DNA of 64,000 nt from an uncultured Ectothiorhodospiraceae bacterium (GCA_947258515.1 CAMYIO010000033.1:609-64608), one strand, 5' to 3'. Shown: positions 22,278 to 47,070, counted from the stretch's first letter. The notes: generated from the sequence alone by a model not told the origin. Program-made: numbers and translations.

Positions 22278-22302
22278 AGCCCCGAGACTGCGAACCATCA
22301 TT

Positions 22303-22375
22303 GTAGGAGCGCCGTCCCCGGCGCGATTGTTCTTTGTCTTGCCCCCGAATCGCGGCGAGGACGCCGCTCCTACAA
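22303..22375. repeat. REP-like palindromic element (type A, copy 1)
   Basis: tgtaggagcgccgtccccggcgcgattg -spacer- aatcgcggcgaggacgccgctcctaca, an imperfect inverted repeat. Near-identical copies lie at 34870, 41423 and 62526. Confidence 0.6.
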
Positions 22376-22407
22376 TATAATTATTACAATAGCTTACGTT
22401 ATATTCC

Positions 22408-28252: not shown

Positions 28253-28510
28253 AGTAGATCCTGATGCACATATATAAGTACGCACATCCGACGTCGTTTT
28301 CCTTTGGTGATCCCTGCATCCGTAATCACACACAAAAATCAATGTGATTCAGTTCCCGCCTGTTACATAACCCGTGTCGCAGTTGAACTATAGGACAGTC
28401 GAGGAATCCTGTTCCGCGAACAGAATCACAGAAAGCCACGCCTACAAACATCAGGATTGTCAGCCACGGAGATAACGACAATTAAAAACCAATGATTGCA
28501 GGAAGTGATT

Positions 28511-29707: not shown

Positions 29708-32200
29708 ATGAACTACATCATAAATTCCATCATGCATCTCGTCCTGCATCGATACGGGGCAGTGTTGCTTGCCAGCGCCATGCTTTCCGCCTGTGGCGGT
29801 GAAAGCACGACTGAAAATCCGCAGACATTTACCACCATGACGTCCAGTTATTCCGGCCCGGCAGCAACGACGGCCGATGTACAGGCATTCAGGCTGAATG
29901 TCTGGGAGAACCTCAATAGACAGAATCGTTGTGGTGCCTGCCACGGTAGCGGCGGTCAGTCACCCACATTCGTACGCATGGATGACGTCAACCTCGCCTA
30001 TGCCGAGGCGAACAGCATCGTTGACCTCGCCAACCCGGCCAGTTCACGCATGGTAACCAAGGTAGCAGGCGGTCATAACTGCTGGCTGGACAGTGACAGT
30101 GCCTGTGGTGATGTCATCACGGCCTATATCACCGCCTGGGCCGGTGGGGTCGCCGGTGGCGGAAATATTATTGAACTCGTTGCACCCCCGCTGCGAGACC
30201 CGGGTGACAGCAAAAGTTTTCCCGACGACTCGGGCCTGTTCGCCACTACCGTGCATCCCTTGCTAACGGCTCATTGTGCCAGCTGCCATGTGGATTCGGC
30301 CGCCAATGCACAGTCTCCCTTCTTTGCGGACAGTGACGCGGACACAGCCTACGAGGCCGCCAAACCCAGGATTGACCTGGATAATCCCGCGAACTCACGT
30401 TTCGTGCTGCGGCTGCGTGAAGAATTTCATAATTGCTGGACATCTAACTGCCTGAATGACGCTGACACCATGGAAGCAGCCATCGCCGCCTTCGCTGCAC
30501 AAATCCCGGTGACGCAAATCGATTCACAGCTTGTCACCAGCAAGGCCCTGACATTACCCGACGGTATCGTTGCCAGTGGTGGTAGCCGCCATGAACAGAA
30601 TGTCATCGCGCTGTACCAGTTTAAAACCGGGCAGGGAAACACCGCGTTCGACACCAGTGGCGTCGAACCGGGCATGCACCTGACACTGAGCGGCAACACC
30701 GGCTGGGTGGGTGGCTGGGGACTCGATATCACCAATGGCAGGGCGCAGGCCTCGACGACAACCAGCCGCAAGCTGCATGAACTGATTACCGCCACCGGTG
30801 AATACACCATTGAAGCCTGGGTGGTAGCAGCCAACGTCACCCAGGAAGGTCCGGCACGCATTATCAGTTACTCAGCCGGAACCACTGTGCGTAATTTCAC
30901 CCTCGGGCAAACGCAGTACAACTACAATTTCCTGCAGCGCAACACCAACACGGACCCCAATGGTGATCCCGCACTGTCTACTGCTGATGCCGATGAAGAC
31001 CTGCAGGCGACGCAACAGCATGTCGTGGCAACCTATGACCCGGTAAGGGGCCGCCGTATTTACGTGAATGGCATCTTTACCGGTGACAGTGACCCGGTTG
31101 CCGGCGGCAGCCTGATTGACTGGGATGACAGTTTTGCCTTCCTGCTGGGTAACGAGGTCTCCGGTGACCGCCAGTGGCAGGGCCGGTTGCGGCTGGTAGC
31201 CATCCATAACCGTGTCCTCACCAATGCACAAATCATGCAGAACTTTGAAGCAGGTGTTGGTGAGAAATTCTTTTTACTGTTTAACGTCAGTGATCATAGC
31301 GGCATTGCGGACTCCTATGTCATGTTACAGGTCAGCCAGTTCGACAACTACAGCTATCTGTTCAATGACCCGTTATTCATCATCCTCGATGCCGATGCCA
31401 CGCCAGACAATATCCCGGTGGCGGGCATGCGCATCGGAATCAACGGCAAGGAGGCGAGCGTCGGTCAGGCCTATCAGCATCTGGATACCACTCTCAGCAG
31501 TGCACAGTATCAACCCGGCATGGGCCAGAAACTGTCCGTACTGGGGACCATTATTGCACTGGAAAAAGGTCCTGAATCAGACGAATTCTTTCTAACCTTC
31601 GAGGTGTTTGGAAACAGTACCCATGTTGTACTTGAGCCACAGCCACTGCAGCCCGGCACACCGCCCGATCTGCCGGAAGCCGCAGATGTCGGACTGCGTA
31701 ATTTTGACGAGATCAATGCCACTATGGCCACCATTACCCGCGTCAGTCCTGAACAGGAAGATGTAGACGATGTATTCGAAACCGTCAGGCAACAGCTGCC
31801 CACCGTTGAAAATATCGAGGGGTTTCTCTCGGCACACCAGATGGCAGTCTCGCAAATGGCCATCGAATACTGCAACGCGCTGGTAGATAACAACGGCAAC
31901 GTGCTGCGCACGGACTATTTTCCGCAGTTTGATTTCAACGAGACGGCAGACAATGCCTTTAATACAGCCGCCCAACGTGACAAGGTCATCCTGCCACTGC
32001 TCAACAGGGTAATGAATACCGGGTTAACAACACAGCCCGACCCCGCACAGGTCATCAGCGAACTTGACGACCTGATACTCATCCTGACTGCCTGCGCCAA
32101 TGGTCCTTCGCCGGGTTGCGCGACAGTGACACGTACGCGGGAAGTCGTGAAGGCGACCTGTGCCGCCATGCTTGGCAGTGCCGCCATGCTGATTCAATAG
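29708..32200 (+). CDS. lipoprotein with two repeated CXXCH-containing domains and a LamG/concanavalin-like domain
   Basis: Lipobox LSAC. A ~100-aa module occurs twice (CGACHG...SPTF...NPASSRMV...HNCW and CASCHV...SPFF...NPANSRFV...HNCW), followed by a LamG-like region. Confidence 0.6.
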   Translation: MNYIINSIMHLVLHRYGAVLLASAMLSACGGESTTENPQTFTTMTSSYSGPAATTADVQAFRLNVWENLNRQNRCGACHGSGGQSPTFVRMDDVNLAYAEANSIVDLANPASSRMVTKVAGGHNCWLDSDSACGDVITAYITAWAGGVAGGGNIIELVAPPLRDPGDSKSFPDDSGLFATTVHPLLTAHCASCHVDSAANAQSPFFADSDADTAYEAAKPRIDLDNPANSRFVLRLREEFHNCWTSNCLNDADTMEAAIAAFAAQIPVTQIDSQLVTSKALTLPDGIVASGGSRHEQNVIALYQFKTGQGNTAFDTSGVEPGMHLTLSGNTGWVGGWGLDITNGRAQASTTTSRKLHELITATGEYTIEAWVVAANVTQEGPARIISYSAGTTVRNFTLGQTQYNYNFLQRNTNTDPNGDPALSTADADEDLQATQQHVVATYDPVRGRRIYVNGIFTGDSDPVAGGSLIDWDDSFAFLLGNEVSGDRQWQGRLRLVAIHNRVLTNAQIMQNFEAGVGEKFFLLFNVSDHSGIADSYVMLQVSQFDNYSYLFNDPLFIILDADATPDNIPVAGMRIGINGKEASVGQAYQHLDTTLSSAQYQPGMGQKLSVLGTIIALEKGPESDEFFLTFEVFGNSTHVVLEPQPLQPGTPPDLPEAADVGLRNFDEINATMATITRVSPEQEDVDDVFETVRQQLPTVENIEGFLSAHQMAVSQMAIEYCNALVDNNGNVLRTDYFPQFDFNETADNAFNTAAQRDKVILPLLNRVMNTGLTTQPDPAQVISELDDLILILTACANGPSPGCATVTRTREVVKATCAAMLGSAAMLIQ

Positions 32201-32220
32201 AACACTACCGGGAGTATTGC

Positions 32221-33819
32221 ATGGCCAGAAAATCCAACCACCGTCGACTGAATGAACCCCTGCGCCTGAATGATCATGGCCGCCCGATCAGCCGCCGTGA
32301 CTTGCTGGGGCAGGGGCTTCTTTCAGGGCTTGGCCTCGTGACCGCACCGACGTTCTTCGGCCTGTTCGCCAATCCGCGCAGGGCCGCCGCGGACCTGTCC
32401 CCGGATCTGGAGGCGTTGAAGACCAGCTGCGGCATCAAGTCCCTCGGCGCCGGTAAAATTCCGTTTATCTGTTTTGACCTGGCCGGGGGTGCGAATATCG
32501 CAGGCTCCAACGTACTGGTCGGGAAACAGGACGGGCAACTGGATTCCCTGAGCACCGCCGGTTACAGCAAACTGGGGTTACCGGGTGACATGACACCGGA
32601 CTCGATAAATCCGCTGACAGGCAACAGTTTCATTAACACGGACTTCGGGCTCGGCTTTCATGCCAGCAGTGCGATGCTGCAGGGCATTCAGGAAAAGGCG
32701 CTGGGCCGCAGCACTGAAATCAATGGTGCCGTGATCCCCGCGCGCTCGGATAACGACACCGCTAACAACCCGCACAATCCCATGTATGGCATCGCGCGTG
32801 CCGGTGCAGATGGCAGCCTGTTGTCTCTGATCGGCTCCAGGAGTTCCGACTCCGGCGGAAACTCCATGGCACCGGCCATGCTGATTGATCCCTCGATCCG
32901 TCCCACCAAGGTTGACCGTCCGTCCGATGTCACGGGCATGGTGGATACCGGCCAGTTGATCGGCGTGCTCAGCCAGGATGACGCGGTTGCCGTGATGGAG
33001 TCCATCGAACGCATCAGCCGGATGAAACTCGACCAGGTCGATACCCGGGTCACGGCGGATGCCATAGTCAAGGACCTGGTGCAATGTGGCTATGTGAAGG
33101 CGGCAGACATTGCCGACCGTTTTGGTGACCCGACCACGCTTGATCCGGCGCTCGATCCTGACATTGTCGGGCCTGGCGGGATATTCGATCAGACCGAATT
33201 CAACAATGACAGCGAGTTTCGCAAAACCGCTTCCGTCATGAAAATGGTCATCAATGGTTTTGCCGGTGCCGGAACAATCACCCTGGGTGGCTATGATTAC
33301 CACACCGGCGATCGCGCCAGCGGTGAATTGCGCGATCTGCGTGCCGGGCGCTGCATCGGCGCCTGTCTGGAGTATGCTGCACGCGCCAACAATGGCAACG
33401 GTGTACCTTTGATGGTCTACGTATTCAGTGATGGTTCCGTATTCAGCAACGGCATGACAGATGACACCCAGACGGGTGGCGGCAAGGGCGTCTGGACCGG
33501 TGATAACTCTTCAACCGCCGCGTCATTCTTTCTTGTCTACAATCCAGGATCAAGGCCACAATTGCTCGGCGCAGACATGGTTGAACGGGCCGTACACCAG
33601 CAGCTGGGGCATTTCCGCAGTGACGGTTCTGTAGAAACCAATGCCACACCGGCCGCCAACCAGGTCAACCTGCTGGTCGAGACCGTGATACTGAATTACA
33701 TGGTACTGCATGGCGAGCAGGCTAACTTCACGAGCCTGTTCCCGAACCATGGCCTCGGTAATGCTGCACTCATGGACAAACTGACCGCGTTCAATCCCAT
33801 TGTTTCCGGGACGATATAG
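32221..33819 (+). CDS. twin-arginine (TAT) signal protein, DUF1552/DUF1501-like partner of the CXXCH proteins
   Basis: Tat motif SRRDLLGQGLLSGLGL. GGGAG Shine-Dalgarno before ATG 32221. The longer ORF upstream (32116) overlaps the previous gene. Confidence 0.55.
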   Translation: MARKSNHRRLNEPLRLNDHGRPISRRDLLGQGLLSGLGLVTAPTFFGLFANPRRAAADLSPDLEALKTSCGIKSLGAGKIPFICFDLAGGANIAGSNVLVGKQDGQLDSLSTAGYSKLGLPGDMTPDSINPLTGNSFINTDFGLGFHASSAMLQGIQEKALGRSTEINGAVIPARSDNDTANNPHNPMYGIARAGADGSLLSLIGSRSSDSGGNSMAPAMLIDPSIRPTKVDRPSDVTGMVDTGQLIGVLSQDDAVAVMESIERISRMKLDQVDTRVTADAIVKDLVQCGYVKAADIADRFGDPTTLDPALDPDIVGPGGIFDQTEFNNDSEFRKTASVMKMVINGFAGAGTITLGGYDYHTGDRASGELRDLRAGRCIGACLEYAARANNGNGVPLMVYVFSDGSVFSNGMTDDTQTGGGKGVWTGDNSSTAASFFLVYNPGSRPQLLGADMVERAVHQQLGHFRSDGSVETNATPAANQVNLLVETVILNYMVLHGEQANFTSLFPNHGLGNAALMDKLTAFNPIVSGTI

Positions 33820-33824
33820 GCATC

Positions 33825-34853
33825 ATGACCCACCCGCACAGTCTCATGCCATCCAGGCCCCACACGATTAACAATCGGGCACGTCATGTACGCCTTTTAA
33901 TACTGTCCATACTGATGCTATTGCCACTCGATGCCAGCGCCGGCTGGATCCGCCAGGAAGCCGCCATCATGGGCACGGCCATCAATGTTGAACTCTGGCA
34001 TGAAGACGCTGCACAGGGCAGGGCCCTGACACAGGCGGTACTGGACGAAATGCATCGCATCGACAATTTGATGAGTACCTACAAGCCTGACAGCGAGCTG
34101 TCCTTAATCAATGCCAATGCCGCCGACGGACCGGTTACCGTCAGCACGGAACTGTTGTCTCTGATCATACGCGCGCTGGATTACTCTGTAATTACGGCTG
34201 GCGCCTTTGATATCACCTATGCCAGTGCAGGACAGTACTATGATTACCGGAACGCTAAAAAACCCAGCGACAGGCAACTCGAGCAGGCATTGCCTGCCAT
34301 CAATTACCGTCACGTAAAGATTGACCCGCAAAGCTCCAGCATTGAATTCATGCGCCAGGGTGTACGCATAGACCTTGGCGGCATAGCAAAGGGCTATGCC
34401 GTTGATCGCAGCATGGAAATACTGCGAAGTGGCGGCGTCGAAAATGCCATTGTCAGTGCCGGTGGTGATTCGCGCGTCATCGGTAAGCGCCGGGACAGGC
34501 CCTGGAATGTCGGCATCCGCCATCCTCGCAACAAGGACAGTATCGTCTCGATGATTCCGCTGGAAAATTCAGCCATCTCCACCTCCGGTGATTATGAACG
34601 CTATTTTGAAGAGGGCGGTGTGCGCTACCATCACATCCTCAACCCGGGCACGGGCACTTCGTCTCACGAGGTACACAGTTCCAGTATTATCGGGGCAGTG
34701 GCGACGGATACGGATGCACTGTCTACCAGTGTGTTTGTACTCGGCGTCAATGACGGTCTGCAGTTAATCAATTCCATACCTGATACCGAGGCCGTCATTA
34801 TCGACAACCAGGGACGTATGCATTATTCCACCGGTCTCGCACAGCTCCAGTAA
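33825..34853 (+). CDS. apbE: FAD:protein FMN transferase (ApbE family)
   Basis: Signal peptide and ApbE motifs (FDITYASAGQYYDY, IDLGGIAKGYAVD, ISTSGDYERYFE...RYHHILNP). Confidence 0.85.
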   Translation: MTHPHSLMPSRPHTINNRARHVRLLILSILMLLPLDASAGWIRQEAAIMGTAINVELWHEDAAQGRALTQAVLDEMHRIDNLMSTYKPDSELSLINANAADGPVTVSTELLSLIIRALDYSVITAGAFDITYASAGQYYDYRNAKKPSDRQLEQALPAINYRHVKIDPQSSSIEFMRQGVRIDLGGIAKGYAVDRSMEILRSGGVENAIVSAGGDSRVIGKRRDRPWNVGIRHPRNKDSIVSMIPLENSAISTSGDYERYFEEGGVRYHHILNPGTGTSSHEVHSSSIIGAVATDTDALSTSVFVLGVNDGLQLINSIPDTEAVIIDNQGRMHYSTGLAQLQ

Positions 34854-34869
34854 CATTTTTTGAATTCAC

Positions 34870-34939
34870 ATGTAGGAGCGCCGTCCCCGGCGCGATTGTT
34901 TTTTCATGATTCGAATCGCGGCGAGGACGCCGCTCCTAC
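34870..34939. repeat. REP-like palindromic element (type A, copy 2)
   Basis: tgtaggagcgccgtccccggcgcgattg ... aatcgcggcgaggacgccgctcctaca, the same element as at 22303. Confidence 0.6.
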
Positions 34940-35083
34940 AGACGTGTCTTTGTAGCACAGGAACGGACCGCTCCCGCGATCAAGAACTGTGATGCTCCGC
35001 GCATCCTCTTGATGCGAAATTCAGCACACTTGTAACAGGCTGCCAGTCGGCAGTCGCTGCTGTGTTTACGGAGGCCGCATGTC

Positions 35084-35638
35084 ATGTCCCTGAAATGCCA
35101 TTTTCCTGTTCCGTTCCGTTTCTGGATAGTACTGCTGATATTCTGCACTACCACAGTCGCCGCAGAGCCGGCCGCACAAACAGCCGGCACGACGGCAAGT
35201 CTCGATGAAGAAATCCAGTCCCTGAAGCAAGACGTGCTGGCGCTCAACCGGGAACTGTTCATCCTTGAAGAAGAACTGCTGTACCCTGCAAACACCCAGG
35301 TCGCGGTGTTTCTGTCTCTCGACATCGGCGAGTTTTTCAGCCTTGACTCGGTACAACTGAAGATCGACGACAATGTGGTCAGCAACTATCTCTATACGCA
35401 ACGCGAGGTAGACGCCCTGCACCAGGGCGGTGTCCAGCGCCTCTACATGGGCAACCTTAAGGCCGGTGAACACGAGCTGGTTGCCATCTTCACGGGCCAG
35501 GGACCCAATGGCCGGGAATACCGTCGTGGCGCCAACCATATCATCACCAAGACACTCGGGGCCCGATTCATTGAACTGAAAATTGTCGATAACGACAGCA
35601 GCGAGCAGCCTGATTTCAGCATCAGGGAATGGGAATAA
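35084..35638 (+). CDS. periplasmic coiled-coil protein (first gene of the Exb/TPR cluster)
   Basis: Signal anchor, coiled-coil segment (EEIQSLKQDVLALNRELFILEEELL), then a beta-rich domain. GGAGG Shine-Dalgarno. Confidence 0.5.
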   Translation: MSLKCHFPVPFRFWIVLLIFCTTTVAAEPAAQTAGTTASLDEEIQSLKQDVLALNRELFILEEELLYPANTQVAVFLSLDIGEFFSLDSVQLKIDDNVVSNYLYTQREVDALHQGGVQRLYMGNLKAGEHELVAIFTGQGPNGREYRRGANHIITKTLGARFIELKIVDNDSSEQPDFSIREWE

Positions 35639-37515
35639 GCAGCATGCCGGTTTTCACCTGCTCACGGCTGTTGCTGCTGTGTCTGATCGTGATCACACCC
35701 TCACTTGACGCAGCGGATGCACCGCCGTCAGCGGTCAAGGACCTGCAATACGGCGAGGTTCTCTACCATTATTTCCAGCAGGACTACTTCAACAGCATCG
35801 TGCGCCTGCAGATTGCAAGGCAGCAGCAACGCCTGCCAAACCACGCGGCAGAGGCCGAACTGATGCTGGGTGGTCTCGACCTGTCCTATGGCCTCAGGGA
35901 CGAGGCCAACCACATTTTTCAACGCCTGCTCAGCGAGGAGACCAGCGATGTCAGCACGCGCAACCGTGCCTGGTTCTATCTTGCGAAGATCTCCTGGCAG
36001 CGCGGTGATATAAACGCGGCACTGCAGGCCATAGAACGTGTGCAGGGAACGATGACAGCCGCAACCCGCACAGCCACAGTCAACCTGCACAGCCTGCTGT
36101 TGCTGCAACAGGGTAACAACCAGGCGGCCATTAAGCTGTTGCAGGATGCACGCAGCGGCAAACGCTGGTCACCGTTCCTGAACTACAACCTCGGTATTGC
36201 CCTGATCCGGGAACAGCAACAGCAGCTGGGCGCGAAACAACTTGATCATATCGGTGATATCAATGGCCGCAACGAGGAGCTGCGCCTGCTGCGTGACAAG
36301 GCCAACCTGGCACTCGGCTACAGTTACCTGCAAGACGGCAATCCGGAAATGGCCCGCAAGACACTGGAGCGTGTACGTCTCGAAGGCCCGCTGTCGAACA
36401 GGGCATTGCTCGGCACCGGCTGGGCAGATACCGAAAGTGAAAACTATGCAGCGGCACTGGTGCCGTGGCTGGAGTTGAGCAGCCGTGACAGCACCGATCC
36501 GGCGGTACAGGAATCATTGCTGGCCATTCCCTATGCCATGACAAAGATGAACCTGCATGGACGCGCTGTAGAGCATTACAATGATGGCATCAGGCAGTTG
36601 ATCGAGGAACGACAGAAACTGGATCAATCCATCAGCGCCATCCACCAGGGCAGACTGCTGGATCTGCTGCAACAACACAACCTCGGCGCCGGCAACGGCT
36701 GGATGCAACAACTGCACCTCGACTCCGAGGCACCTGCGCTGCGCTACCAGCTCGCACTGATGTCATCGCACGACTTTCAGGAAGCTGTGAAGAATTACCG
36801 TGATCTCCTTGTATTACAAGTTAATCTATCCAGCTGGGAGAGCGCTATCGCCGCCTACGACGATATGCTCGCCGGCCGCCAGGCACGCTTTGAGACACAC
36901 CGCCCCGCAGCACAACAGGTACTGCAGGGCACGCGCCTGCAGCAACTGCAACAGCGCCGTGCCGCACTGGCCGAGAATCTTGCCCGCATCGGCATAATGG
37001 ACGATGCCGCCGCACTGGCGACCCCGGAAGAGGCCCGGCAGTGGCATCAACTGGCAACCATCGCTGAGCGACTGGCGCAGCTACCGGATAATCCCGATAC
37101 CGCGACATTGCACGACAAGCAGCAGCGCCTGCGTGGCCTGCTCATCTGGCAATTTCAGGAAGACTACAAACCACGCCTGTGGCAAGCCAGGAGGCAACTC
37201 GCCGAACTGGACACCCTGCTCAACGAGTCACAGCACGGCATCGACAGCCTGCAGCAGGCCAAAATCGATGCCCCGTCCGGTTTTGGCGATTTCAAACGGC
37301 GTATCGCCGCTAACAAGTCAACCATCGAGAAACTGTCAGCACAGACGGATACCACCCTGCTTGCACAAGGCAAGCAACTGGAGCATCTCGCCATCAATGA
37401 ACTGGAGCGTCAACAACAGCGTGTCGATGCCTATATCATCCAGGCACGTTTCGCGCTTGCGCAAACCTATGACAACGCCCTGCAGCAACCGGCAGTGGAG
37501 GGGAGCGTACAGTGA
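35629..37515 (+). CDS. periplasmic TPR + coiled-coil protein
   Basis: Signal peptide, N-terminal TPRs and a long C-terminal coiled-coil. Overlaps the next gene's start. Confidence 0.6.
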   Translation: MGISSMPVFTCSRLLLLCLIVITPSLDAADAPPSAVKDLQYGEVLYHYFQQDYFNSIVRLQIARQQQRLPNHAAEAELMLGGLDLSYGLRDEANHIFQRLLSEETSDVSTRNRAWFYLAKISWQRGDINAALQAIERVQGTMTAATRTATVNLHSLLLLQQGNNQAAIKLLQDARSGKRWSPFLNYNLGIALIREQQQQLGAKQLDHIGDINGRNEELRLLRDKANLALGYSYLQDGNPEMARKTLERVRLEGPLSNRALLGTGWADTESENYAAALVPWLELSSRDSTDPAVQESLLAIPYAMTKMNLHGRAVEHYNDGIRQLIEERQKLDQSISAIHQGRLLDLLQQHNLGAGNGWMQQLHLDSEAPALRYQLALMSSHDFQEAVKNYRDLLVLQVNLSSWESAIAAYDDMLAGRQARFETHRPAAQQVLQGTRLQQLQQRRAALAENLARIGIMDDAAALATPEEARQWHQLATIAERLAQLPDNPDTATLHDKQQRLRGLLIWQFQEDYKPRLWQARRQLAELDTLLNESQHGIDSLQQAKIDAPSGFGDFKRRIAANKSTIEKLSAQTDTTLLAQGKQLEHLAINELERQQQRVDAYIIQARFALAQTYDNALQQPAVEGSVQ

Positions 37516-38276
37516 AGCCCGTACTGCCTGTCATGGTGATGATGGCCGCCCTGTCAAGCGCCTGCTCAGTGCTGCACGGGGACAATGAGCCTACCATCGC
37601 GAGCCTCGGCAAACGCCCGGTAAAACTCGAGGACACACCGGTGTCAGCCAGTGAAGTGCAGGCGATCTCGGCCTACCGGTCCTTTCTTGACAGCGGTGAT
37701 GAATCGGATTCACGCCCGCACGCGATGCGCCGCATTGCCGACCTGAACCTGGAAAAAGAGGAACTGCCGCAAGCCGGGCAGACTACCCCGGACACCCCGT
37801 CGCTGCAGCCAATAGAGGCGCGCGAATCCATCGAACTGTACCAGAGCGTACTGTCACTCTATCCACAGCGCGCGGACAACGACTCGGTGCTCTATCAACT
37901 CGCACGCGCCTACGAGATGGATGGCCAGCCGCGACAATCGCTCGACACGCTGGCAACCCTCGTACAACACTACCCGCAGAGTCAATATGTGCTGGAAGCA
38001 CAGTTCAGGCGTGGCGAGATCCTGTTCGAGCAACGCGACTACGATAACGCAGAGCAGGCCTACCGCGCCGTGGTCAGCAGTGGCCCGGATAATTCGTTCT
38101 ACCGGCAATCGCTATACAAGAGCGGCTGGTGTTTTTTCAAGCTGTCAGAGCTGGATGAATCACTGGATGCCTTCATGGCACTCCTCGATCTGGAGCTGCA
38201 GGATACCGAAGCGGGTATTGCGCAACTCGATCAGCTGAGCCGTCCGCGGCGCGAACTGGCGCGAACTGGTGGATGA
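37512..38276 (+). CDS. TPR lipoprotein, 5' fragment of a split ~935-aa TPR gene (GltD/AgmU-like)
   Basis: Lipobox LSSACS. The frame ends 8 nt after the tandem 10-bp duplication gcgcgaactg/gcgcgaactg at 38249-38268. Removing one copy fuses it in frame to the next ORF. Confidence 0.6.
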   Translation: MKPVLPVMVMMAALSSACSVLHGDNEPTIASLGKRPVKLEDTPVSASEVQAISAYRSFLDSGDESDSRPHAMRRIADLNLEKEELPQAGQTTPDTPSLQPIEARESIELYQSVLSLYPQRADNDSVLYQLARAYEMDGQPRQSLDTLATLVQHYPQSQYVLEAQFRRGEILFEQRDYDNAEQAYRAVVSSGPDNSFYRQSLYKSGWCFFKLSELDESLDAFMALLDLELQDTEAGIAQLDQLSRPRRELARTGG

Positions 38277-40320
38277 CACCCTGCGCGTGGTCAGTCTGGG
38301 TTTCTCCTATGGGCAGGGTGCCGATGGCGTGTCCGAGTATTTCAAGCGACGCGGCACACGCCATTACGAATACATCATCTACGACAACCTTGGCCTGCTG
38401 TACCTGCAGAAGGAACGTTATAACGACGCCGCACAAACCTTCCAGGCGTTTGTGACACAAAACCCCATACATCGCCTGGCGCCCGGCTTCCAGATGCGCG
38501 TTATCGAGACCTATCAGCAAGGCAACTTCCCGACACTGGTACTGGAAAGCAAGGAGGCACTGGTCGATCAGTACAACCTGCAGAGTGAGTACTGGCAGCA
38601 TTACTCGCCAGAGGACAACCCGCAGGTACTGGATTACCTGAAGCTGGCCATGACTGACCTGTCCCGTCACTACCATGCACTGGCGCAGAAGGACAAGAAG
38701 CCGCAGGACTACCAGCAGGCCGCACACTGGTACCGGCGCTACCTGGGTTCATTCAGGGAGGATGCGGACGCGCCGCAGATGAATTTCCTGCTGGCCGAAC
38801 TGTTATTTGAATCCGGTGACTACCAGCAGGCCGCACTGGAATACGAAATTACCGCCTACGACTACGCCCCTCACGAGAACGCAGCAGCTGCCGGTTATGC
38901 GGCGGTACTCGCCTATGACAAACAGGAAGAGCGCCTGACAGGCAGCGCACAACAGGCGTGGCACCGGCAGTCTATCGAGTATGCCATCCGCTTTGCCAGC
39001 ACCTTCCCCCGGCATCCGCAGGCCATGGCTGTCCTTACCCGCAGCAGCGAACAGCTGCTGGCCAGCGGTGACCAGGAACGGGCAATACAGGTTGCGCAGT
39101 CAGTCATTGCCAGCGAGCAGGCCAGTGCCGTCCAGCAACGGGTTGCCTGGACGGTACAGGCACATGCCTACTTCGAGCAGGGAGATTTCCTGCAGGCTGA
39201 GGCCGCCTACCAGCAGGTACGCCAGCGCATGCCACGGGATAACAAGGAGTATGACAATATAAATGAGCGACTTGCCGCATCTATCTATAAACAGGGAGAA
39301 GCTGCGCAGGCGGCCGGTGAAACCGCCGACGCCGTCGCCCATTTCCGGCGGGTGCGTGAAGCCACACCCACGGCCTCCATCGTGGCCACCGCCGAATTCG
39401 ATGCGGCTGCCGGATTATTGTCACTACAACAATGGTCACAGGCTGCCGCCATGCTGGACCGTTTCCGCAACAGCTACCCGAATGATCCACGCCAGGACGA
39501 GGTAACGCGACGCCTCGCCACGGCTTACCTGGCCGAGGAGCAACCGCTGCAGGCCGCCCGCGAGTTCGAACGCATCGGCACCAGCCATGAGGACCCGACA
39601 TTGCGGCGTGAGGCACTCTGGCAAGCAGCGGAACTGTATACCGCGGCCGGCCAGCCGAACGAGTCCGTCGTGGCATACCAGCGCTACATCCAGCAATTTC
39701 CGCAACCCGTTGAACCAGCCGTCGAGGCACGGCAACGGATCGCTACACATTACGCGGCCAGCAACAACCTGGCGGAACAGCAGCGCTGGTTGAAGGACAT
39801 CATCAGGGCGGACCGGCAGGCGGGCAAGCAACGCAGTGACCGCACCCGCTATCTTGCCGCGCGCGCACAACTGACGCTTGCTGATAATGCCCATGAAAAC
39901 TACCGTCGCGCAAGACTGGTCCTGCCATTGAAGAAAAGCCTCGCTGTCAAGAAGCGCCTGATGCAATCGGCCATGCAGCAATACGAACAGGCCGCCGCTT
40001 ACCAGGTCGCCGAAGTCACCACGGCGGCCACCTTTCAAACGGCGCAGATCTATACGGAACTGGGCGTCGCCTTGCTGCAATCACAGCGACCGGCGAACCT
40101 GAGCGGCGAGCCCCTGGAGCAATACAACATTCTGCTGGAAGAACAGGCCTATCCGTTTGAAGAGCAGGCCATCACGCTGCATGAGACCAATGTGCAACGC
40201 ATCGAGTCCGGTCTGTACAACGCCTGGATCGAAAAAAGCCTGCAACAACTCGCGCAACTGGTGCCGGCCCGGTATGCCAAACTGGAAAGAGGGGCGCCCT
40301 ATGTCACCGCACTTAAATAA
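38269..40320 (+). CDS. TPR protein, 3' fragment of the same split gene
   Basis: Continues the TPR array (RRELVDDTLRVVSLGF... after removing one repeat copy). It has no start codon or Shine-Dalgarno of its own. Confidence 0.6.
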   Translation: MDDTLRVVSLGFSYGQGADGVSEYFKRRGTRHYEYIIYDNLGLLYLQKERYNDAAQTFQAFVTQNPIHRLAPGFQMRVIETYQQGNFPTLVLESKEALVDQYNLQSEYWQHYSPEDNPQVLDYLKLAMTDLSRHYHALAQKDKKPQDYQQAAHWYRRYLGSFREDADAPQMNFLLAELLFESGDYQQAALEYEITAYDYAPHENAAAAGYAAVLAYDKQEERLTGSAQQAWHRQSIEYAIRFASTFPRHPQAMAVLTRSSEQLLASGDQERAIQVAQSVIASEQASAVQQRVAWTVQAHAYFEQGDFLQAEAAYQQVRQRMPRDNKEYDNINERLAASIYKQGEAAQAAGETADAVAHFRRVREATPTASIVATAEFDAAAGLLSLQQWSQAAAMLDRFRNSYPNDPRQDEVTRRLATAYLAEEQPLQAAREFERIGTSHEDPTLRREALWQAAELYTAAGQPNESVVAYQRYIQQFPQPVEPAVEARQRIATHYAASNNLAEQQRWLKDIIRADRQAGKQRSDRTRYLAARAQLTLADNAHENYRRARLVLPLKKSLAVKKRLMQSAMQQYEQAAAYQVAEVTTAATFQTAQIYTELGVALLQSQRPANLSGEPLEQYNILLEEQAYPFEEQAITLHETNVQRIESGLYNAWIEKSLQQLAQLVPARYAKLERGAPYVTALK

Positions 40321-40455
40321 AGCACCCTACCTCCATAGCTGCATTCCCTCTTTCCCAGGAGAGGGCCACGACTGCAGGGATGCAGGAGGTAGGGCACCAA
40401 AAGCAGGCGCTTTAGCGACGCATGGCGCAGTTGCCGAGGGAGAGGGGAAAGACAG

Positions 40456-41064
40456 ATGAAGTTGAAACATGCGCTGGCACTGCTATTCATTGCCATCTGC
40501 CTGCTGCTAATAAATGGCTGCACGAACACCCGCAGCCATCAACCGGCGCTCATTGCAACGCCCACGGCAGACATTAAATCCGGGTATCAAAGCGCACTGC
40601 TAGCGATGCAGGCCGAACAATGGCAGCCAGCCCGCGAGCAACTCACTGAAATAACGACCCAACAACCCTCACTCTCCGGACCCTGGGTCAACCTGGGTAT
40701 CACCCGGACCATGCTCGGTGATCACGCCGGTGCCGAGAGCGCCTTCAAGAAAGCTATCGATACCAACAGCCGGAATATCGAGGCCTACAACCAGCTCGGC
40801 ATGCTCTACCGGCGTCACAGCCGTCTCGATGAAGCGCAATTCATCTACGAGGAAGCGCTGCGACGCGACCCGGACAACAGCAACATCCATTGGAACCTTG
40901 GCATCCTCTATGACCGCTACCTGCCGAATCCGCGCCAGGCCTTGCAGCACTACCAGCGCTACCAGAAGCTCACCGCGTCCGACGATCCCCGCTTACTGGC
41001 ATGGATTGCCGAACTGGAGGCACGCAATCCCGGCGACAACGTGACTGCGAAGGTAAAACCATGA
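40456..41064 (+). CDS. TPR lipoprotein
   Basis: Lipobox LLINGCT, then 4-5 TPRs. Confidence 0.65.
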   Translation: MKLKHALALLFIAICLLLINGCTNTRSHQPALIATPTADIKSGYQSALLAMQAEQWQPAREQLTEITTQQPSLSGPWVNLGITRTMLGDHAGAESAFKKAIDTNSRNIEAYNQLGMLYRRHSRLDEAQFIYEEALRRDPDNSNIHWNLGILYDRYLPNPRQALQHYQRYQKLTASDDPRLLAWIAELEARNPGDNVTAKVKP

Positions 41065-41339
41065 TGCGTACAACGTTCCACAGGCTGTTGCCTGCCATAC
41101 TGCTGAGCACGGCCTTGCAGGCACACGCCGAGGACACACTGACGCTCGATGGTGCCACCATTGTCGGTAACCGTGAATTACCCAAGGCACTGCACATCGT
41201 GCCCTGGAAATCGGCTGAAGCCGGTGAACTGGCCGGCCGTCCCATGAACAGCCTGGTCGATGAAATCCTCGCACCCGTAGACCGTGACGTGTTCCTCAGG
41301 GAACTCGAGTACTACGAAGCAGTTCACGGTATTGAATGA
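41061..41339 (+). CDS. small secreted hypothetical protein
   Basis: ATGATG overlap with the upstream stop. Signal peptide MMRTTFHRLLPAILLSTALQAHA. Confidence 0.45.
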   Translation: MMRTTFHRLLPAILLSTALQAHAEDTLTLDGATIVGNRELPKALHIVPWKSAEAGELAGRPMNSLVDEILAPVDRDVFLRELEYYEAVHGIE

Positions 41340-41422
41340 ACACATCAGTAATCTTTACCCGGTAGTTTTGAAAATCCCGGACTGAGAGCTGGTTTTGCCA
41401 CTGCTAAGGTTTTGGCTAAATC

Positions 41423-41474
41423 CTGCAGGAGCGCCGTCCCCGGCGCGAATCGCGGCGAGACGCCGCTCCTGCAG
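41423..41474. repeat. REP-like palindromic element (type A, copy 3, no spacer)
   Basis: ctgcaggagcgccgtccccggcgcgaatcgcggcgagacgccgctcctgcag. Confidence 0.55.
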
Positions 41475-41572
41475 TAAGCTTTTATACAATGCCGGATTGT
41501 TCCAACATCGCATACAGCGTGAAAGACGAGCACCACCAGATATATTCTAGACACGATAAACAGGAGCAGCCT

Positions 41573-42198
41573 ATGGACGCTTACACCACCATTGTCGGAT
41601 TCTTCCAGTCCGGCGGCTTATTCATGTACCCGATAGTGCTGATGAGCGCTACATCTATCTCAGCATGGCCAGGACCAGCAATCACCGCATCTGGAAAAAA
41701 CTCCAGCCACTGTTGCAAAAGGGCGATTATCTGCAGGTTGCCATGGTCACCGAGAAGTCCCGTTCCGCCATCAGCCACATCTTCAGTTACGGTCTCAACC
41801 GCGCACGCACCTCGCGCCGCCGCGATGATGTCGAGATCGCCATGGAGGAGGGCCTGATGGAGACCGTACCCAACCTTGAAAAACGCACCCCCTACCTGGC
41901 CACCTTTGCCAATATCGCGACCCTGCTGGGGTTGCTGGGGACCATTATCGGCCTGATCCAGGCGTTTACCGCCGTTGCCGCCGCAAACCCTGCCGAGAAG
42001 GCCGACATGCTGTCCGCAAGTATCTCGGTCGCCATGAACACCACGGCCTTCGGCCTGATGGTCGCCATCCCGTTGCTGCTGATATACGCCGTGCTGCAGA
42101 CCAAGACCACGCAACTGGTCGACAGTCTCGAAATGGCCTCGGTGAAGTTCCTGAACCTGTTAACTGAACGGCCGCTCGGCGAGGCCAAGGCCGGATGA
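41573..42198 (+). pseudogene. exbB: MotA/TolQ/ExbB-family proton channel, frameshifted near 41665
   Basis: N-terminus MDAYTTIVGFFQSGGLFMYPIVLMSATSI in one frame. The remainder, ...RIWKKLQPLLQKGD...GLLGTIIGLIQAF...MVAIPLLLIYAVLQ, is in the 41665 frame. AGGAG Shine-Dalgarno before 41573. Confidence 0.6.
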
Positions 42199-42719
42199 GA
42201 CGCCGCCTGCGTCGCCGCGCCGGGCAGCACGAACCGGCCGACATCAATATCACTGCCTTCATGAACCTGATGGTGATCCTGGTGCCGTTCCTGCTCATCA
42301 CGGCGGTGTTCTCGCGCATCACTATACTGGAACTGAATCTGCCGGCCGCGAGCGCCGGCCAGGCCGACAGCGAGCACGCCTTCCAGCTGGAGATCATCGT
42401 GCGTGCTGACATGATCGAGGTAGGCGACCGCAACGGCGGCCTGATCAGGCGCATCCCCGCAAACGAGGCAGGGCAAGACTACCGGCAATTATCGGAGCTG
42501 TTACAACAGGTGAAGGCTCGCTTCCCCGAGAAGCTCGACGCCATGCTGTTGCTGGAGGCCGACATTTCCTACGACACCGTGGTACAGGCCATGGACAGCA
42601 TCCGCGTGGCGCCGGTTGTGCAGGCCGGCACGTTACAGCTGGCCGAACTGTTTCCGGAAATCGCCATTGGCGATGCACCTGCTGACAACAGCAAAGTCGC
42701 CAGCAACAAGGGTCCGTAA
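42195..42719 (+). CDS. exbD: ExbD/TolR-family biopolymer transport protein
   Basis: ADINITAFMNLMVILVPFLL transmembrane helix plus periplasmic domain. ATGA overlap with exbB. Confidence 0.8.
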   Translation: MRRRLRRRAGQHEPADINITAFMNLMVILVPFLLITAVFSRITILELNLPAASAGQADSEHAFQLEIIVRADMIEVGDRNGGLIRRIPANEAGQDYRQLSELLQQVKARFPEKLDAMLLLEADISYDTVVQAMDSIRVAPVVQAGTLQLAELFPEIAIGDAPADNSKVASNKGP

Positions 42720-42721
42720 TC

Positions 42722-43228
42722 ATGATCCATTCGCGTCGTGCAGATCGTATGAATCGTCACCACAAACGGGCCGGCCGCAACACCGGCATCAACCTGGTGT
42801 CGCTGATGGACATTTTCACCATCCTGGTGTTCTTCCTGCTGGTGAACTCATCCGACGGTGAGGTACTGCCAACACAAAAGTCCGTGAAACTGCCCGAGTC
42901 GGTCGCCGAAGAACAGCCTCGCATGGCGCTGGTCGTCATGATCAATGAAACTGATATCATGATTCATGGCAAGGTCATCACCAGCACAGAAGCTGTGCTG
43001 AACGCAGATGCTGGCGCCACAGACCTGCTGAGAACAGCCCTGCAGGCTGAACTCGGGAAATCCGCGCAGCAGGATAAAAACGGCAAGCCCGTCAAACACG
43101 AGGCCACCATTATGGGTGACCGCGATATCCCCTACAGGATTCTGAAACAGGTGATGGCGAGCTGCACCGAAGCGGGGTTTGCGCGCATTTCACTGGCGGT
43201 ATTGCAAAAGCCACTGCAGGAGAGCTAA
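42722..43228 (+). CDS. exbD: ExbD/TolR-family biopolymer transport protein (second copy)
   Basis: GINLVSLMDIFTILVFFLLV transmembrane helix plus periplasmic domain. Confidence 0.8.
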   Translation: MIHSRRADRMNRHHKRAGRNTGINLVSLMDIFTILVFFLLVNSSDGEVLPTQKSVKLPESVAEEQPRMALVVMINETDIMIHGKVITSTEAVLNADAGATDLLRTALQAELGKSAQQDKNGKPVKHEATIMGDRDIPYRILKQVMASCTEAGFARISLAVLQKPLQES

Positions 43229-43231
43229 GCC

Positions 43232-44242
43232 ATGACGAGCTACAGTCACGCGCTCACCATGCCATGGACCTATAGCGCCGAAAGCGATGACCGCTATCAG
43301 CGTATCCTGCGTATCAATCTGGTGTTGTGCCTGTTGTTCGGCATTGCCATGCCGTTTCTGCCGCTGTCAGAGAGGGACGAGCCGATAATTGAAGAACCAC
43401 CGCGCCTTGCGACCCTGATCCTTGAAGTAAAACCGGTTCCGCCACCACCCAAACCGAAACCGGTCCCGAAACCACTGCCGAAAAAGGTCACCCAGCCGGA
43501 ACCAAAGCCCGTACCGAAGAAGGCCGTGGCGCCGAAAAAGACCGTGACGCCTGCAAAGCCGGTACCGAAGGTTGCCAAGGCAGCCCCGGTAAAACCCGTG
43601 CAGGCGAAGCCGGTACCGGTAAAGCCCAGGGTTACGGCACGGCAAAAGGCCGAGAAGTCCGGCCTGCTGGCGCTAACAGACAGCCTTGCTGACATGCGCC
43701 AGGGCACCAGTAGCAGTAACCTGCGTAAAACAAACCAACTGTCACAGAACGGCGGGCAGGCCCGCACCACCGAGCGTGCGCTACTGACCAGCGGCACCAC
43801 CCGTTCCAGCGGCGGCATCCAGACCGCCAGCCTGAGCCGCAATACCGGCGGCGGTGAACTGGCAACACGTTCCACCACACAGGTACAGAGTCCGGGAGGC
43901 ACTACCGCCAGCGGTGGTACAGTGGGCAACAGTGACAGGGGAACACGCAGCGCCGGGCGCAGCATCGAAGAGATCCAGATGGTTTTCGACCGCAACAAGG
44001 GGGCCATCTACAGTGTCTACAACCGTGCCCTCAGGAAGGACCCGACCCTGCAGGGTAAAGTCGTTCTGCAACTCACCATCGCCCCGTCCGGCAAGGTGAC
44101 CCGCTGTGAACTGGTCTCCAGTGAACTGCACGATGCCACCCTCGGCCAAAAGATTACGCAACGCGTCAAGCTCTTCAATTTCGAATCCAAAGACGTCAGC
44201 GAAATCACCATCACCTATCCCATCGATTTCCTGCCCGCCTGA
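43232..44242 (+). CDS. TonB-family energy transducer (Pro/Lys-rich spacer + TonB C-terminal domain)
   Basis: Transmembrane helix, (PxP/KP)n spacer PVPPPPKPKPVPKPLPKK..., and a C-terminal TonB-type domain (VVLQLTIAPSGKV...ITITYPIDF). Confidence 0.75.
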   Translation: MTSYSHALTMPWTYSAESDDRYQRILRINLVLCLLFGIAMPFLPLSERDEPIIEEPPRLATLILEVKPVPPPPKPKPVPKPLPKKVTQPEPKPVPKKAVAPKKTVTPAKPVPKVAKAAPVKPVQAKPVPVKPRVTARQKAEKSGLLALTDSLADMRQGTSSSNLRKTNQLSQNGGQARTTERALLTSGTTRSSGGIQTASLSRNTGGGELATRSTTQVQSPGGTTASGGTVGNSDRGTRSAGRSIEEIQMVFDRNKGAIYSVYNRALRKDPTLQGKVVLQLTIAPSGKVTRCELVSSELHDATLGQKITQRVKLFNFESKDVSEITITYPIDFLPA

Positions 44243-45305: not shown

Positions 45306-45377
45306 TATTCATGCACGAATATTCCGTTACACTGCGCGCCGATGCATTATGGCAGCTGCATACAAGGAGAGAATAGA

Positions 45378-45791
45378 ATGTTGAAACGCCCGTTTATAGC
45401 TGTCGTGGTAATTTTCATAGCCTGGTCGCTGCTCGATTTTGTGATCCATGGCCTGCTCTTGCAGGAGACATACGAAGCAACAGCCAGTCTGTGGCGTCCC
45501 ATGGAAGAGATGAACATGACGCTCATGTACATCGTCACGCTGGCATACACTGTCTGCTTCGTTGCGATTTATGATGTCTTCGTCAGTCAGAAATCTGTTT
45601 CAACCGGTATAAAATACGGCGCGCTGTTCGGTTTAGCGGCCGGCATATCAATGGGCTTCGGTTCCTACACGTTCATGCCAATACCCTGGTCTCTGGCATT
45701 AAGCTGGTTTACAGGAACACTGGTTGAATCAATCGTGGCAGGCGCACTGGCTGGTGCCATCATAAAACAGTCGGATAACCGACCCCTATGA
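45378..45791 (+). CDS. hypothetical integral membrane protein
   Basis: Three to four transmembrane helices. Start placed at the MLKRPF ATG. Confidence 0.45.
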   Translation: MLKRPFIAVVVIFIAWSLLDFVIHGLLLQETYEATASLWRPMEEMNMTLMYIVTLAYTVCFVAIYDVFVSQKSVSTGIKYGALFGLAAGISMGFGSYTFMPIPWSLALSWFTGTLVESIVAGALAGAIIKQSDNRPL

Positions 45792-46090
45792 ATCGTCGGC
45801 ATGGCAGGTCAATCATGCCCACACGATCTATCTGTGCCTTTCTGTTTGTATCACTGCCGTTTTCAATGACTGCCTGTGCCTGGATGCAGCAGCCCGATAA
45901 TCCTGAAGATACCGGCCTGAGCCTGCAAACAACAGAATTCGATGGCCTGGAACGCAGCTATTATTTGCATTTGCCACCCGACTATAACGCCGCTTCCAGG
46001 CTGCCTGTTGTGTTCGTGCTTCATGGCGGCGGCAAGGCAGACGGCGACGAGGTAGCCAGCAGAACGGGGGCGGATCACCGGGATGCCTGA
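45788..46090 (+). pseudogene. esterase/PHB-depolymerase-family protein, N-terminal remnant
   Basis: Lipoprotein signal plus ERSYYLHLPPDYNAASRLPVVFVLHGGGK. The frame stops after 100 aa, about one third of family length. Confidence 0.5.
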
Positions 46091-46199
46091 TACCCTGCAG
46101 GACAACACACCCCGATAAAATTACGTGAGGTTTATCGTTGGGTATGGCCGTGTATCCTGGTAATTCCAGTCAAACTGTATTAGTGACAAAGGCTTCATT

Positions 46200-46742
46200 G
46201 TGCGAAAAATGTCCGTCATCGTTGTTATTATTGCCAGCGTTCTGGGTTATGGATACTGGCATTCATTGACCCATGCTGCTTTTCATGTACAGCTGGATTT
46301 CAAGGATCATGACAATGGAACAGAGGAAATCCTTCCAAGGGTCGGGATTGATTTTCTGGACACGGAGGGACGTGTGTTAGCTCAGGGTGTAAGCGACGAA
46401 CACTATAACTATGTGCATCTGATACACCCGGAAGTCGGTGACTGCCGTCAGGCAGAAGAGTCCGCCCCATTTTCAGGCGAAGGCAGAAATGCCTGGCAGA
46501 CATGTTTTGAACACCTGTCTACCTGGATAGCCACCTGGGCCGGCAAGGTTAGCCGGGTAAACGTGAATACTGACCGTTGTACCCGGAGAAATCTCCCCGT
46601 GACCGTTTCAGAAAGTAATTCCGACTGGTTTCTCTGGTGGGTCCCTCACCCCCATATAGGTGGAAATCCGTACAAGTATTATAGTTTATCGATCACAGTC
46701 GATGAAAAAGATTGCGCCAACCAGGTAATGACGCCTGATTGA
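46200..46742 (+). CDS. hypothetical protein with N-terminal membrane anchor
   Basis: 180-aa ORF in a low-GC segment. No recognisable family. Confidence 0.4.
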   Translation: MRKMSVIVVIIASVLGYGYWHSLTHAAFHVQLDFKDHDNGTEEILPRVGIDFLDTEGRVLAQGVSDEHYNYVHLIHPEVGDCRQAEESAPFSGEGRNAWQTCFEHLSTWIATWAGKVSRVNVNTDRCTRRNLPVTVSESNSDWFLWWVPHPHIGGNPYKYYSLSITVDEKDCANQVMTPD

Positions 46743-46782
46743 TACATTCGAATGCAAGCAGGATTGGGCTATTTAAAAGAAC

Positions 46783-47019
46783 ATGGCAGATAAACTGCAT
46801 AATGCTGGCATCGCACTCGCGATTTTCCTGATTTCTTTGCCCCTCGCCATATTCGTCACGATCTTGTTACTACCATTATGGAAGTGGCTCGAATCAACGT
46901 TTAAAATCGAGTCCATTGGTCACTCGGGTCCGTCGGAGTGGTGTTATTGGACGAGCTACTTCATTATTGTGAGCTGTTTTTGTTTAATCTGGTGGAAAAA
47001 ACGACGCACCGGTACCTGA
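46783..47019 (+). CDS. hypothetical small membrane protein
   Basis: 78 aa with two hydrophobic helices. Weak call. Confidence 0.3.
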   Translation: MADKLHNAGIALAIFLISLPLAIFVTILLLPLWKWLESTFKIESIGHSGPSEWCYWTSYFIIVSCFCLIWWKKRRTGT

Positions 47020-47070
47020 TAGCGTCATTGATGGCATACTACGCAAACCCGATTCAGGGGACTGGTTAAC

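Follow-up and report, generated by a model that had tools for sequence, protein, structure and literature searches.

A 2011 study introduced the Agl/Glt core complex as the machine ancestral to the gliding apparatus of Myxococcus (PMC3169522). As defined by Luciano et al., this "core complex" consists of gltC, gltD, gltE, gltG, aglR, aglQ and aglS together with one extra gene without homologues in the Myxococcales. Clustered copies are known from several Gammaproteobacteria, one betaproteobacterium, Geobacter and Fibrobacter, and what the complex does in organisms that do not glide is unknown (PMC3169522). Here we analyze a gene cluster from an uncultured Ectothiorhodospiraceae bacterium, located in a 64,000-nt stretch of DNA (GCA_947258515.1, CAMYIO010000033.1:609-64608), the whole of which is referred to as the window. 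We are confident, though short of certain, that this cluster represents a gammaproteobacterial version of the Agl/Glt core complex, the stand-alone envelope machine that gave rise to the gliding (Agl-Glt) and spore-coat (Agl-Nfs) machineries of Myxococcus, and that it is inactivated in this genome. The core complex has been known as a gene cluster since 2011, and the window contains a further, recently inactivated member from an uncultured lineage. Added by our comparative work are the definition of a nine-gene unit, an Asn/Asp asymmetry of the stator, and a list of cultured carriers.

In Table S3 of the 2011 study, the core genes are consecutive in Marinobacter, Hahella, Saccharophagus, Cellvibrio, Teredinibacter and Shewanella. 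Their products measure 550-692 aa (GltC), 933-1016 aa (GltD), 162-263 aa (GltE), 205-272 aa (AglR), 169-188 aa (AglQ), 162-185 aa (AglS) and 321-334 aa (GltG; 535 aa in Thioalkalivibrio), with an unlisted locus tag following GltE, and MXAN_2541 and MXAN_4869 are the reference proteins for the GltC and GltE homologue groups, respectively (PMC3169522). For Myxococcus, an AlphaFold model of the complex shows an AglQ-AglS heterodimer plug within the AglR pentamer, GltG in a crevice of GltD, GltE at the C-terminal end of GltD, and GltC connecting to the outer membrane (PMC11761067). An interaction between AglR and GltG was detected in a two-hybrid assay (PMC3169522). The proton-binding Asp of AglQ is essential (PMC3858216; PMC9120999), and its D28N substitution stops the motor (PMC3858216). 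Literature searches by locus tags or organism names retrieved no functional work on the gammaproteobacterial or non-gliding core.

Composition of the cluster and likeness to the core complex

As shown in Table 1, the + strand of the window carries nine closely packed open reading frames (ORFs) between positions 35084 and 44242, in agreement with the original prediction, made from the sequence, of a same-strand cluster. Neighboring ORFs overlap at their stop and start codons or are separated by 2-5 nt, with two exceptions: a 135-nt spacer before the 202-aa gene (40320 to 40456) and a 233-nt spacer before the exbB-like gene (41339 to 41573). In Pfam searches, tetratricopeptide repeats (TPR) were detected in three of the products, MotA_ExbB (PF01618) in one, ExbD (PF02472) in two, and TonB_C, as a borderline match, in the product of gene 9. 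The predicted set of one MotA/TolQ/ExbB channel, two ExbD/TolR paralogues and a TonB-like protein was thereby recovered. The four TPR partners that had been claimed alongside were an overcount, since the repeats occur in three products and gene 1 encodes a helix and a beta-sandwich without TPR.

Table 1. Genes and other features of the cluster, with positions in the window
Feature	Coordinates	Strand	Description
Gene 1	35084-35638	+	Secreted protein, 184 aa
Gene 2	35629-37515	+	GltC-sized periplasmic TPR protein with a helical region; 628 aa from the first ATG
Gene 3	37512-40320	+	GltD-sized TPR lipoprotein; pseudogene (ORFs 37512-38276 and 38269-40320)
Gene 4	40456-41064	+	GltE-sized TPR lipoprotein, 202 aa
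Gene 5	41061-41339	+	Small secreted protein, 92 aa
Gene 6	41573-42198	+	AglR-like TolQ/ExbB-type channel; pseudogene
Gene 7	42195-42719	+	ExbD/TolR paralogue 1, 174 aa, AglQ position
Gene 8	42722-43228	+	ExbD/TolR paralogue 2, 168 aa, AglS position
Gene 9	43232-44242	+	GltG-like TonB/TolA-like transducer, 336 aa
10-bp tandem duplication	38250-38269	+	Two copies of CGCGAACTGG, read directly; splits the GltD-like frame
REP-like palindrome	34869-34942		Upstream of the cluster; two inverted arms match GGAGCGCCGTCCCCGGCGCGA
REP-like palindrome	41424-41475		Inside the cluster, between the 92-aa gene and exbB

From gene 2 onward, the order of the genes is that of the core complex, GltC-GltD-GltE-(extra small gene)-AglR-AglQ-AglS-GltG, and the sizes of the products match as well (628, 932 after repair, 202, 92, 217 in intact relatives, 174, 168 and 336 aa). 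The 92-aa gene lies where Table S3 skips one locus tag after the GltE homologues and before those of AglR (PMC3169522). The C-terminal domain (CTD) of the gene 9 product passed the GltG-type profile check, scoring 72.8 bits against a cut-off of 40 on NCBIfam NF033768 (AgmX/PglI, corresponding to the GltJ/GltG CTD), and the NCBI names of gene 9 homologues agree with an AgmX/PglI-type assignment. The NF033768 match, the gene order and the product sizes all support the earlier reading of the locus as an ancestral Agl/Glt core, in which the 628-aa protein had been missed as the counterpart of GltC. The cluster further resembles the core complex in combining one channel and two ExbD/TolR paralogues with a TonB-like GltG that has an AgmX/PglI-type CTD, in the absence of Group A genes, and in having no known function. 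It differs in its origin from an uncultured lineage outside the 2011 study, in two genes that are broken here, in a conserved 184-aa first gene added to the unit, and in the Asn/Asp asymmetry documented below for the ExbD pair.

We scanned one genome per species using an alignment of the GltG-like protein as the query; at least 564 stretches matched, and the best 80 loci were examined. Among the 54 loci with enough upstream DNA, all nine genes were found in 51 and were colinear in 50, the cluster being kept together in unrelated lineages. Because the nine genes occur together in this way, the 184-aa and 92-aa proteins can be regarded as members of the conserved unit. The best 80 loci all belong to Gammaproteobacteria, mostly uncultured, or, in a few cases, to Desulfobacterales. 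Apart from the latter, the taxa recorded were Thiohalobacter, Thiogranum, Thiohalobacterales, Ectothiorhodospiraceae, Acidiferrobacterales, Woeseiaceae and Steroidobacteraceae, the last including the cultured Povalibacter uvarum and Peristeroidobacter agariperforans. The nearest named relatives of the window copy are Thiohalobacter, Thiogranum and Ectothiorhodospiraceae metagenome-assembled genomes (MAGs), and the closest sequences are metagenome contigs and MAGs.

With the Myxococcus Agl-Glt and Agl-Nfs machineries the cluster shares the motor architecture of an AglR channel and an AglQ/AglS heterodimer, the TonB-like CTD of the transducer, and a periplasmic TPR scaffold of the GltC/D/E type. 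Compared with Agl-Glt, it lacks the GltA/B/H barrels, the GltK/CglB adhesin, GltF, GltI and GltJ, and the scan of ten flanking proteins revealed neither an OmpA-like barrel nor any other Glt protein. The window proteins are also shorter, with 336 vs. 650 aa (model length) for GltG, 202 vs. about 455 aa for GltE and 932 vs. about 1200 aa for GltD (PMC11761067). The cluster also includes two additional secreted subunits; for one of them at least, the lack of a Myxococcales homologue was stated (PMC3169522). According to the AlphaFold2 model, the GltG-like protein comprises a membrane helix (residues 16-42), a disordered Pro/Lys-rich spacer and a confidently predicted CTD (245-336). Its cytoplasmic N-terminus is short (~15-25 residues) and no FHA domain was detected in Pfam or in the model; it should therefore have no link to the MglA/MreB/AglZ platform. 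A Myxococcus-type gliding machinery proper was rejected on these grounds, the ten flanking proteins including no Group A Glt protein and the GltG-like protein having no FHA domain.

Gene 2 gave TPR_16 and TPR_2 matches in Pfam; its start is probably at 35644, which would shorten the product to 623 aa. Gene 3 contains TPR_6/YbgF-like repeats, and the repaired protein scored 119 bits on TIGR02795 (YbgF/CpoB) over six stretches, while many of its homologues carry the JGI label "TolA-binding protein"; the repeats and the label both fit a transducer-binding role for the GltD-like protein. For gene 4, many TPR families were matched in Pfam. Its best NCBIfam match was gliding_GltE, whose cut-off of 225 bits is far above the 47.3 bits obtained; PilW scored practically the same (47.0 bits), so that the match is non-discriminating. 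SPI-type signals are kept in orthologues of the 184-aa and 628-aa proteins, and a signal with the lipobox Cys is conserved among orthologues of the 932-aa and 202-aa proteins, which bears out their designation as TPR lipoproteins.

The two remaining secreted proteins matched no family model. The 184-aa product of gene 1 combines a signal peptide with a single long helix and a beta-sandwich of the Ig/transthyretin type; it matched nothing in Pfam or NCBIfam, and the fold search returned generic beta-sandwich matches only. Its family comprises 1215 clusters at 50% identity with E<=1e-3, or 801 with E<=1e-10. Several homologues (P0158, P0162, P0168, P0181, P0192 and P0208) are labeled "AraC family transcriptional regulator" at NCBI, a name that is very unlikely to be right given the signal peptide and the fold. 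The 92-aa product of gene 5, likewise without a match in Pfam or NCBIfam, is present at the same position in nearly all loci and has two recognizable motifs, a strand-like GN(R/K)E(L/A)PKxLxIVPWK and a C-terminal helix-like PVDxxVFxRxLxYY. As Myxococcus GltF is likewise encoded right after gltE, one may speculate, by analogy, on a GltF-like bridging role for this protein. At locus L001 (7342-8049), the GltE-like gene and the gene for the small secreted protein have become one 235-aa ORF through a deletion of ~173 bp, and the signal peptide of the small protein is lost.

Motor and transducer in relation to Ton and Tol-Pal systems

The C-terminal ORF of gene 6 matched MotA_ExbB with 104 bits in Pfam. 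On the NCBIfam models, whose equivalog cut-offs are 221 bits for TolQ, 206 for ExbB, 127 for TolR and 123-216 for the ExbD models, the intact channel of L001 scored higher for TolQ (70.9 bits) than for ExbB (45.8 bits, TIGR02797). Among PDB chains, which include none of Agl/Glt, the channel is nearest to TolQ, rather than ExbB or MotA, and it retains the Thr and Pro residues of transmembrane (TM) helices 2 and 3 that align with TolQ. The ExbD domain was matched with 54 bits by gene 7 and 61 bits by gene 8 in Pfam; on the NCBIfam models the two paralogues reached at most 27 bits for ExbD and ~34 bits for TolR.

Alignment to a solved ExbD chain placed Asn24 of paralogue 1 opposite the essential TM Asp of ExbD. 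Asn was found at this position in 56 of 58 orthologues of paralogue 1 and Asp in 72 of 73 orthologues of paralogue 2, and the TM motif of the two proteins is consistently different across orthologues. Together with the essential Asp of AglQ and the modeled AglQ-AglS heterodimer, this asymmetry indicates that a fixed heterodimer with one protonatable site is probably a general property of this motor class. Two Steroidobacteraceae loci (L051 and L054) are the sole ones with Asp in both paralogues.

A first alternative to a core-complex motor is an accessory Ton system of the Vibrio TonB2/TonB3-Ttp or Xanthomonas tonB-exbB-exbD1-exbD2 type, which would energize transporters encoded elsewhere and have the TPR proteins as accessories. 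The likeness is real: ExbB and ExbD Pfam domains are present, a Pro-rich spacer precedes a CTD with the TonB CTD fold, the generic TonB C-terminal model TIGR01352 was passed with 29.2 bits against a cut-off of 27.1, and some Ton clusters, too, have a pair of ExbD genes. However, the CTD scored far better on the AgmX/PglI model, and the channel scored higher on TolQ than on ExbB, with both values far under the equivalog cut-offs. The TM helix of TonB has a conserved His (SHLS), whereas no invariant His of this type was present in the TM segment of gene 9 in alignment A1. Nor was a TonB-dependent receptor (Plug, TonB_dep_Rec) found among the ten flanking proteins scanned, within 10 kb of the cluster, and no neighbor family recurs across distant taxa in 50+ loci, in keeping with the earlier statement that this is not a canonical TonB siderophore system. 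In the Vibrio TonB2/TonB3-Ttp cluster, ExbB-ExbD-TonB are accompanied by TtpB (DUF3450), TtpD and the large channel protein TtpC. In the present cluster the 184-aa protein has no DUF3450 match and the only MotA_ExbB protein is the one of 217 aa, so that neither TtpB nor a large TtpC is encoded, no receptor lies nearby, and a TonB2/Ttp locus was rejected. One ExbD paralogue of the window cluster lacks the Asp, and the motor has TPR and secreted subunits as obligatory partners, three TPR and two extra secreted proteins being kept alongside in 50 of the 54 loci. We know of no Ton system with three TPR and two extra secreted proteins conserved in this manner. Membership of a Ton system was consequently dismissed on the ExbB and ExbD scores, the missing SHLS His and the lack of a receptor among the flanking proteins, and we regard this explanation as very improbable.

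Scarcely better are the chances of a divergent second Tol-Pal-like system, serving outer membrane attachment or constriction, in which the 932-aa protein would be an expanded CpoB/YbgF. The channel is nearest to TolQ, the repaired 932-aa protein matches the YbgF/CpoB model in its six repeated stretches, and "TolA-binding protein" is the JGI name of many of its homologues. Both systems would have a 5:2-type TolQ-like channel with TolR-like plugs, an elongated TolA/TonB-like transducer and a YbgF/CpoB-type TPR partner that may bind it. Yet no TolB or Pal homologue was found in the cluster or among the ten flanking proteins, and all Tol equivalog cut-offs were missed (70.9 vs. 221 bits for TolQ and ~34 vs. 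127 bits for TolR). The CTD of gene 9 is matched structurally better by TonB CTDs than by TolA CTDs, the TolR-like subunits are heteromeric and not homodimeric, and the TPR partner is here a 932-aa lipoprotein. Of the Tol-Pal components, only the YbgF-type TPR repeats are shared, and Tol-Pal membership was rejected. The comparison is a fair account of how the cluster might work, not of its identity, and as such is compatible with membership of the core complex. A role in Zorya or other anti-phage defense was discarded as well; the sole PADLOC match was that of the channel to the ZorA superfamily, at 17.5 bits.

A working model of the core complex can be drawn by combining its homology to TolQR/ExbBD with the AlphaFold model published for Myxococcus. 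In intact relatives, a TolQ/ExbB-like pentamer would house one copy each of the two ExbD/TolR paralogues, one with the Asp and the other with the Asn. Proton flow through this inner-membrane motor of channel, ExbD1 and ExbD2 would move the single membrane helix of the GltG-like protein. A highly conserved extended stretch of the latter (residues ~136-240 in alignment A1) may run along the TPR groove of the GltD-like protein, on which the CTD would dock, and the GltE-like and GltC-like proteins would extend the scaffold towards the outer membrane. With the participation of the two further conserved secreted subunits (184 and 92 aa), force would thereby be passed towards the outer membrane.

Several points speak against assigning the cluster to the Agl/Glt core. 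No GltD or GltC model of NCBIfam was matched at E<=10 by the TPR proteins of the cluster, and their GltC/D/E assignment is suggested by position, size and published phylogeny, the GltE match being weak. GltA/B, the outer-membrane partners of GltC in Myxococcus, are absent. In position, the Asn-bearing paralogue corresponds to AglQ, which in Myxococcus carries the essential Asp. The contacts proposed for the gammaproteobacterial family are drawn by analogy, and the lesions described below could in principle be assembly errors.

A bolder reading, which we put forward only tentatively and hold to be less probable than its contrary, is that the gammaproteobacterial core forms a third class of Tol/Ton-like envelope-spanning motor. 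It would have nine obligatory subunits and not seven, a fixed heterodimer plug in which one ExbD-like subunit is protonatable, and a TonB-like arm pulling a TPR scaffold and not a transporter. The scaffold would include two so-far undescribed secreted proteins, the 92-aa one, a strand and a C-terminal helix encoded right after gltE, possibly corresponding in position to Myxococcus GltF. If this were true, the double inactivation, confined to one strain, would show that the cell can do without the system under some conditions. The Agl/Glt core is among the few widespread proton-driven envelope machines with a function still unknown; a full parts list and the Asn/Asp asymmetry should aid experiments in cultured carriers (Povalibacter uvarum, Peristeroidobacter agariperforans, Marinobacter and Cellvibrio) and the interpretation of the Myxococcus motor.

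Two lesions in the window copy

Two genes of the cluster are disrupted in the window. In the large TPR gene, the predicted 10-bp duplication was confirmed as two tandem copies of CGCGAACTGG, and removal of one copy gives an uninterrupted ORF of 932 aa. The repeat is a 10-bp insertion with respect to L001 and is absent from L045, L003, L001, L024 and L009. As it stands, the split gene encodes two pieces, a lipoprotein stub of 254 aa and a 683-aa fragment that has no signal. The exbB-like gene is also disrupted, as had been noticed, not by a simple frameshift but by a deletion in the first membrane helix: compared with every relative examined, 28 bp are missing between 41643 and 41644, which takes most of the channel TM1 and shifts the frame.

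Both lesions are private to this genome. The metagenome contig L085, from the same species-level population and 94.6% identical over 2.8 kb, has an intact exbB of 217 aa, to which the exbB of the window is otherwise 99% identical (6/626 nt mismatches). Similarly, the 932-aa form of the large TPR protein is complete in L001, and the closest homologues, two of them 95% identical, all have this length as well. One explanation would be that both disruptions are sequencing or assembly artefacts and that the organism in fact has a complete, working system. The near identity of the remaining exbB to the same-species contig, with no other sign of decay, is in its favor, and so is the related long-read MAG L045 with its many error-like 1-bp frameshifts. 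On the other hand, a 10-bp tandem duplication and a 28-bp deletion are unlike homopolymer slips, and two independent hits in one operon fit a loss of function followed by relaxed selection. Moreover, many long ORFs elsewhere in the window, up to 917 aa, are uninterrupted, which argues that the assembly is not generally error-ridden. We therefore consider artefacts unlikely and read the lesions as real, very recent, strain-specific inactivating mutations, with assembly error as a minor alternative. The earlier suggestion that the system may be decaying holds for the presence of two disruptions and is overstated as to decay, the lesions being private and very recent.

With a channel lacking most of TM1 and a GltD-like scaffold split by the 10-bp duplication, the machine in this genome should be unable to assemble and is almost certainly dead. 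Taken alone this copy adds little, and it is mainly evidence that the cell survives the loss of the system.

Other breaks of the cluster were seen in related genomes. L045 (MFD09779.bin.2.146), the closest species-representative MAG, has many 1-bp indels that break most of the cluster genes; they differ from the lesions of the window and look like long-read sequencing errors. A reduced cluster was found in CP070821.1, a 2.6-Mb MAG (L002/L007, 5759-10990), in which the 184-aa and GltC-like genes are missing and the GltD-like protein has only 498 aa, with the motor, the small gene and GltG kept; in that lineage, too, the scaffold half is decaying.

REP-like elements and flanking DNA

Four sites resembling repetitive extragenic palindromic (REP) elements are present in the window, at 22300-22378, about 62524-62590 and the two positions listed in Table 1. 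They consist of the core GGAGCGCCGTCCCCGGCGCGA with an imperfect inverted arm, and the core gave 6 matches in the window vs. 0.01 expected. The cluster had been described as lying between two REP copies. This did not hold, as the second copy is located inside the cluster and none was found 3′ of the last gene (after 44242). The upstream copy is absent, as an alignment gap, from the same-species contig L084, which indicates that the REP-like elements vary between strains. In the spacer between gene 5 and exbB, REP copies were also detected in L001, where they lie at sites equivalent to those of the window, and none in L003, L045 and L085. Scans of the sequence for promoters and terminators performed no better than on shuffled sequence, and tRNA and Rfam scans were negative.

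Clustering of the flanks of 50+ related loci revealed no tenth gene or neighbor family that is recurrent across distant taxa; ApbE, a twin-arginine (TAT)-signal protein and a DUF3570-like barrel are shared among related lineages only. A conserved upstream block (29708-34853 in the window) travels with the cluster in ~20 related loci, including L001, L003, L008-L011, L015, L024, L083 and L084, and not in distant taxa. It encodes an 830-aa Laminin_G_3 protein with a weak cytochrome-c match, a 532-aa protein with a twin-arginine signal and without a Pfam family, and ApbE (FMN transferase). In eight distant loci (L036, L037, L057, L059, L063, L064, L071 and L080), a repeat-rich secreted protein of >1800 aa is encoded directly 3′ of the gltG-like gene; it is surface-protein-like by sequence and may be a surface cargo or partner.

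Two further observations concern the wider surroundings of the cluster. On the - strand of the window, at 25676-28342, an 888-aa protein matches the middle domain of the hydrazine synthase alpha-subunit (PF18582) with 52.9 bits, which is unexpected outside anammox bacteria. Downstream of the cluster, ~1.7 kb (45345-47027) are absent from the related contig L086. An ORF of 100 aa at 45788-46090 resembles the N-terminal stub of a secreted esterase/depolymerase and may be a gene remnant.

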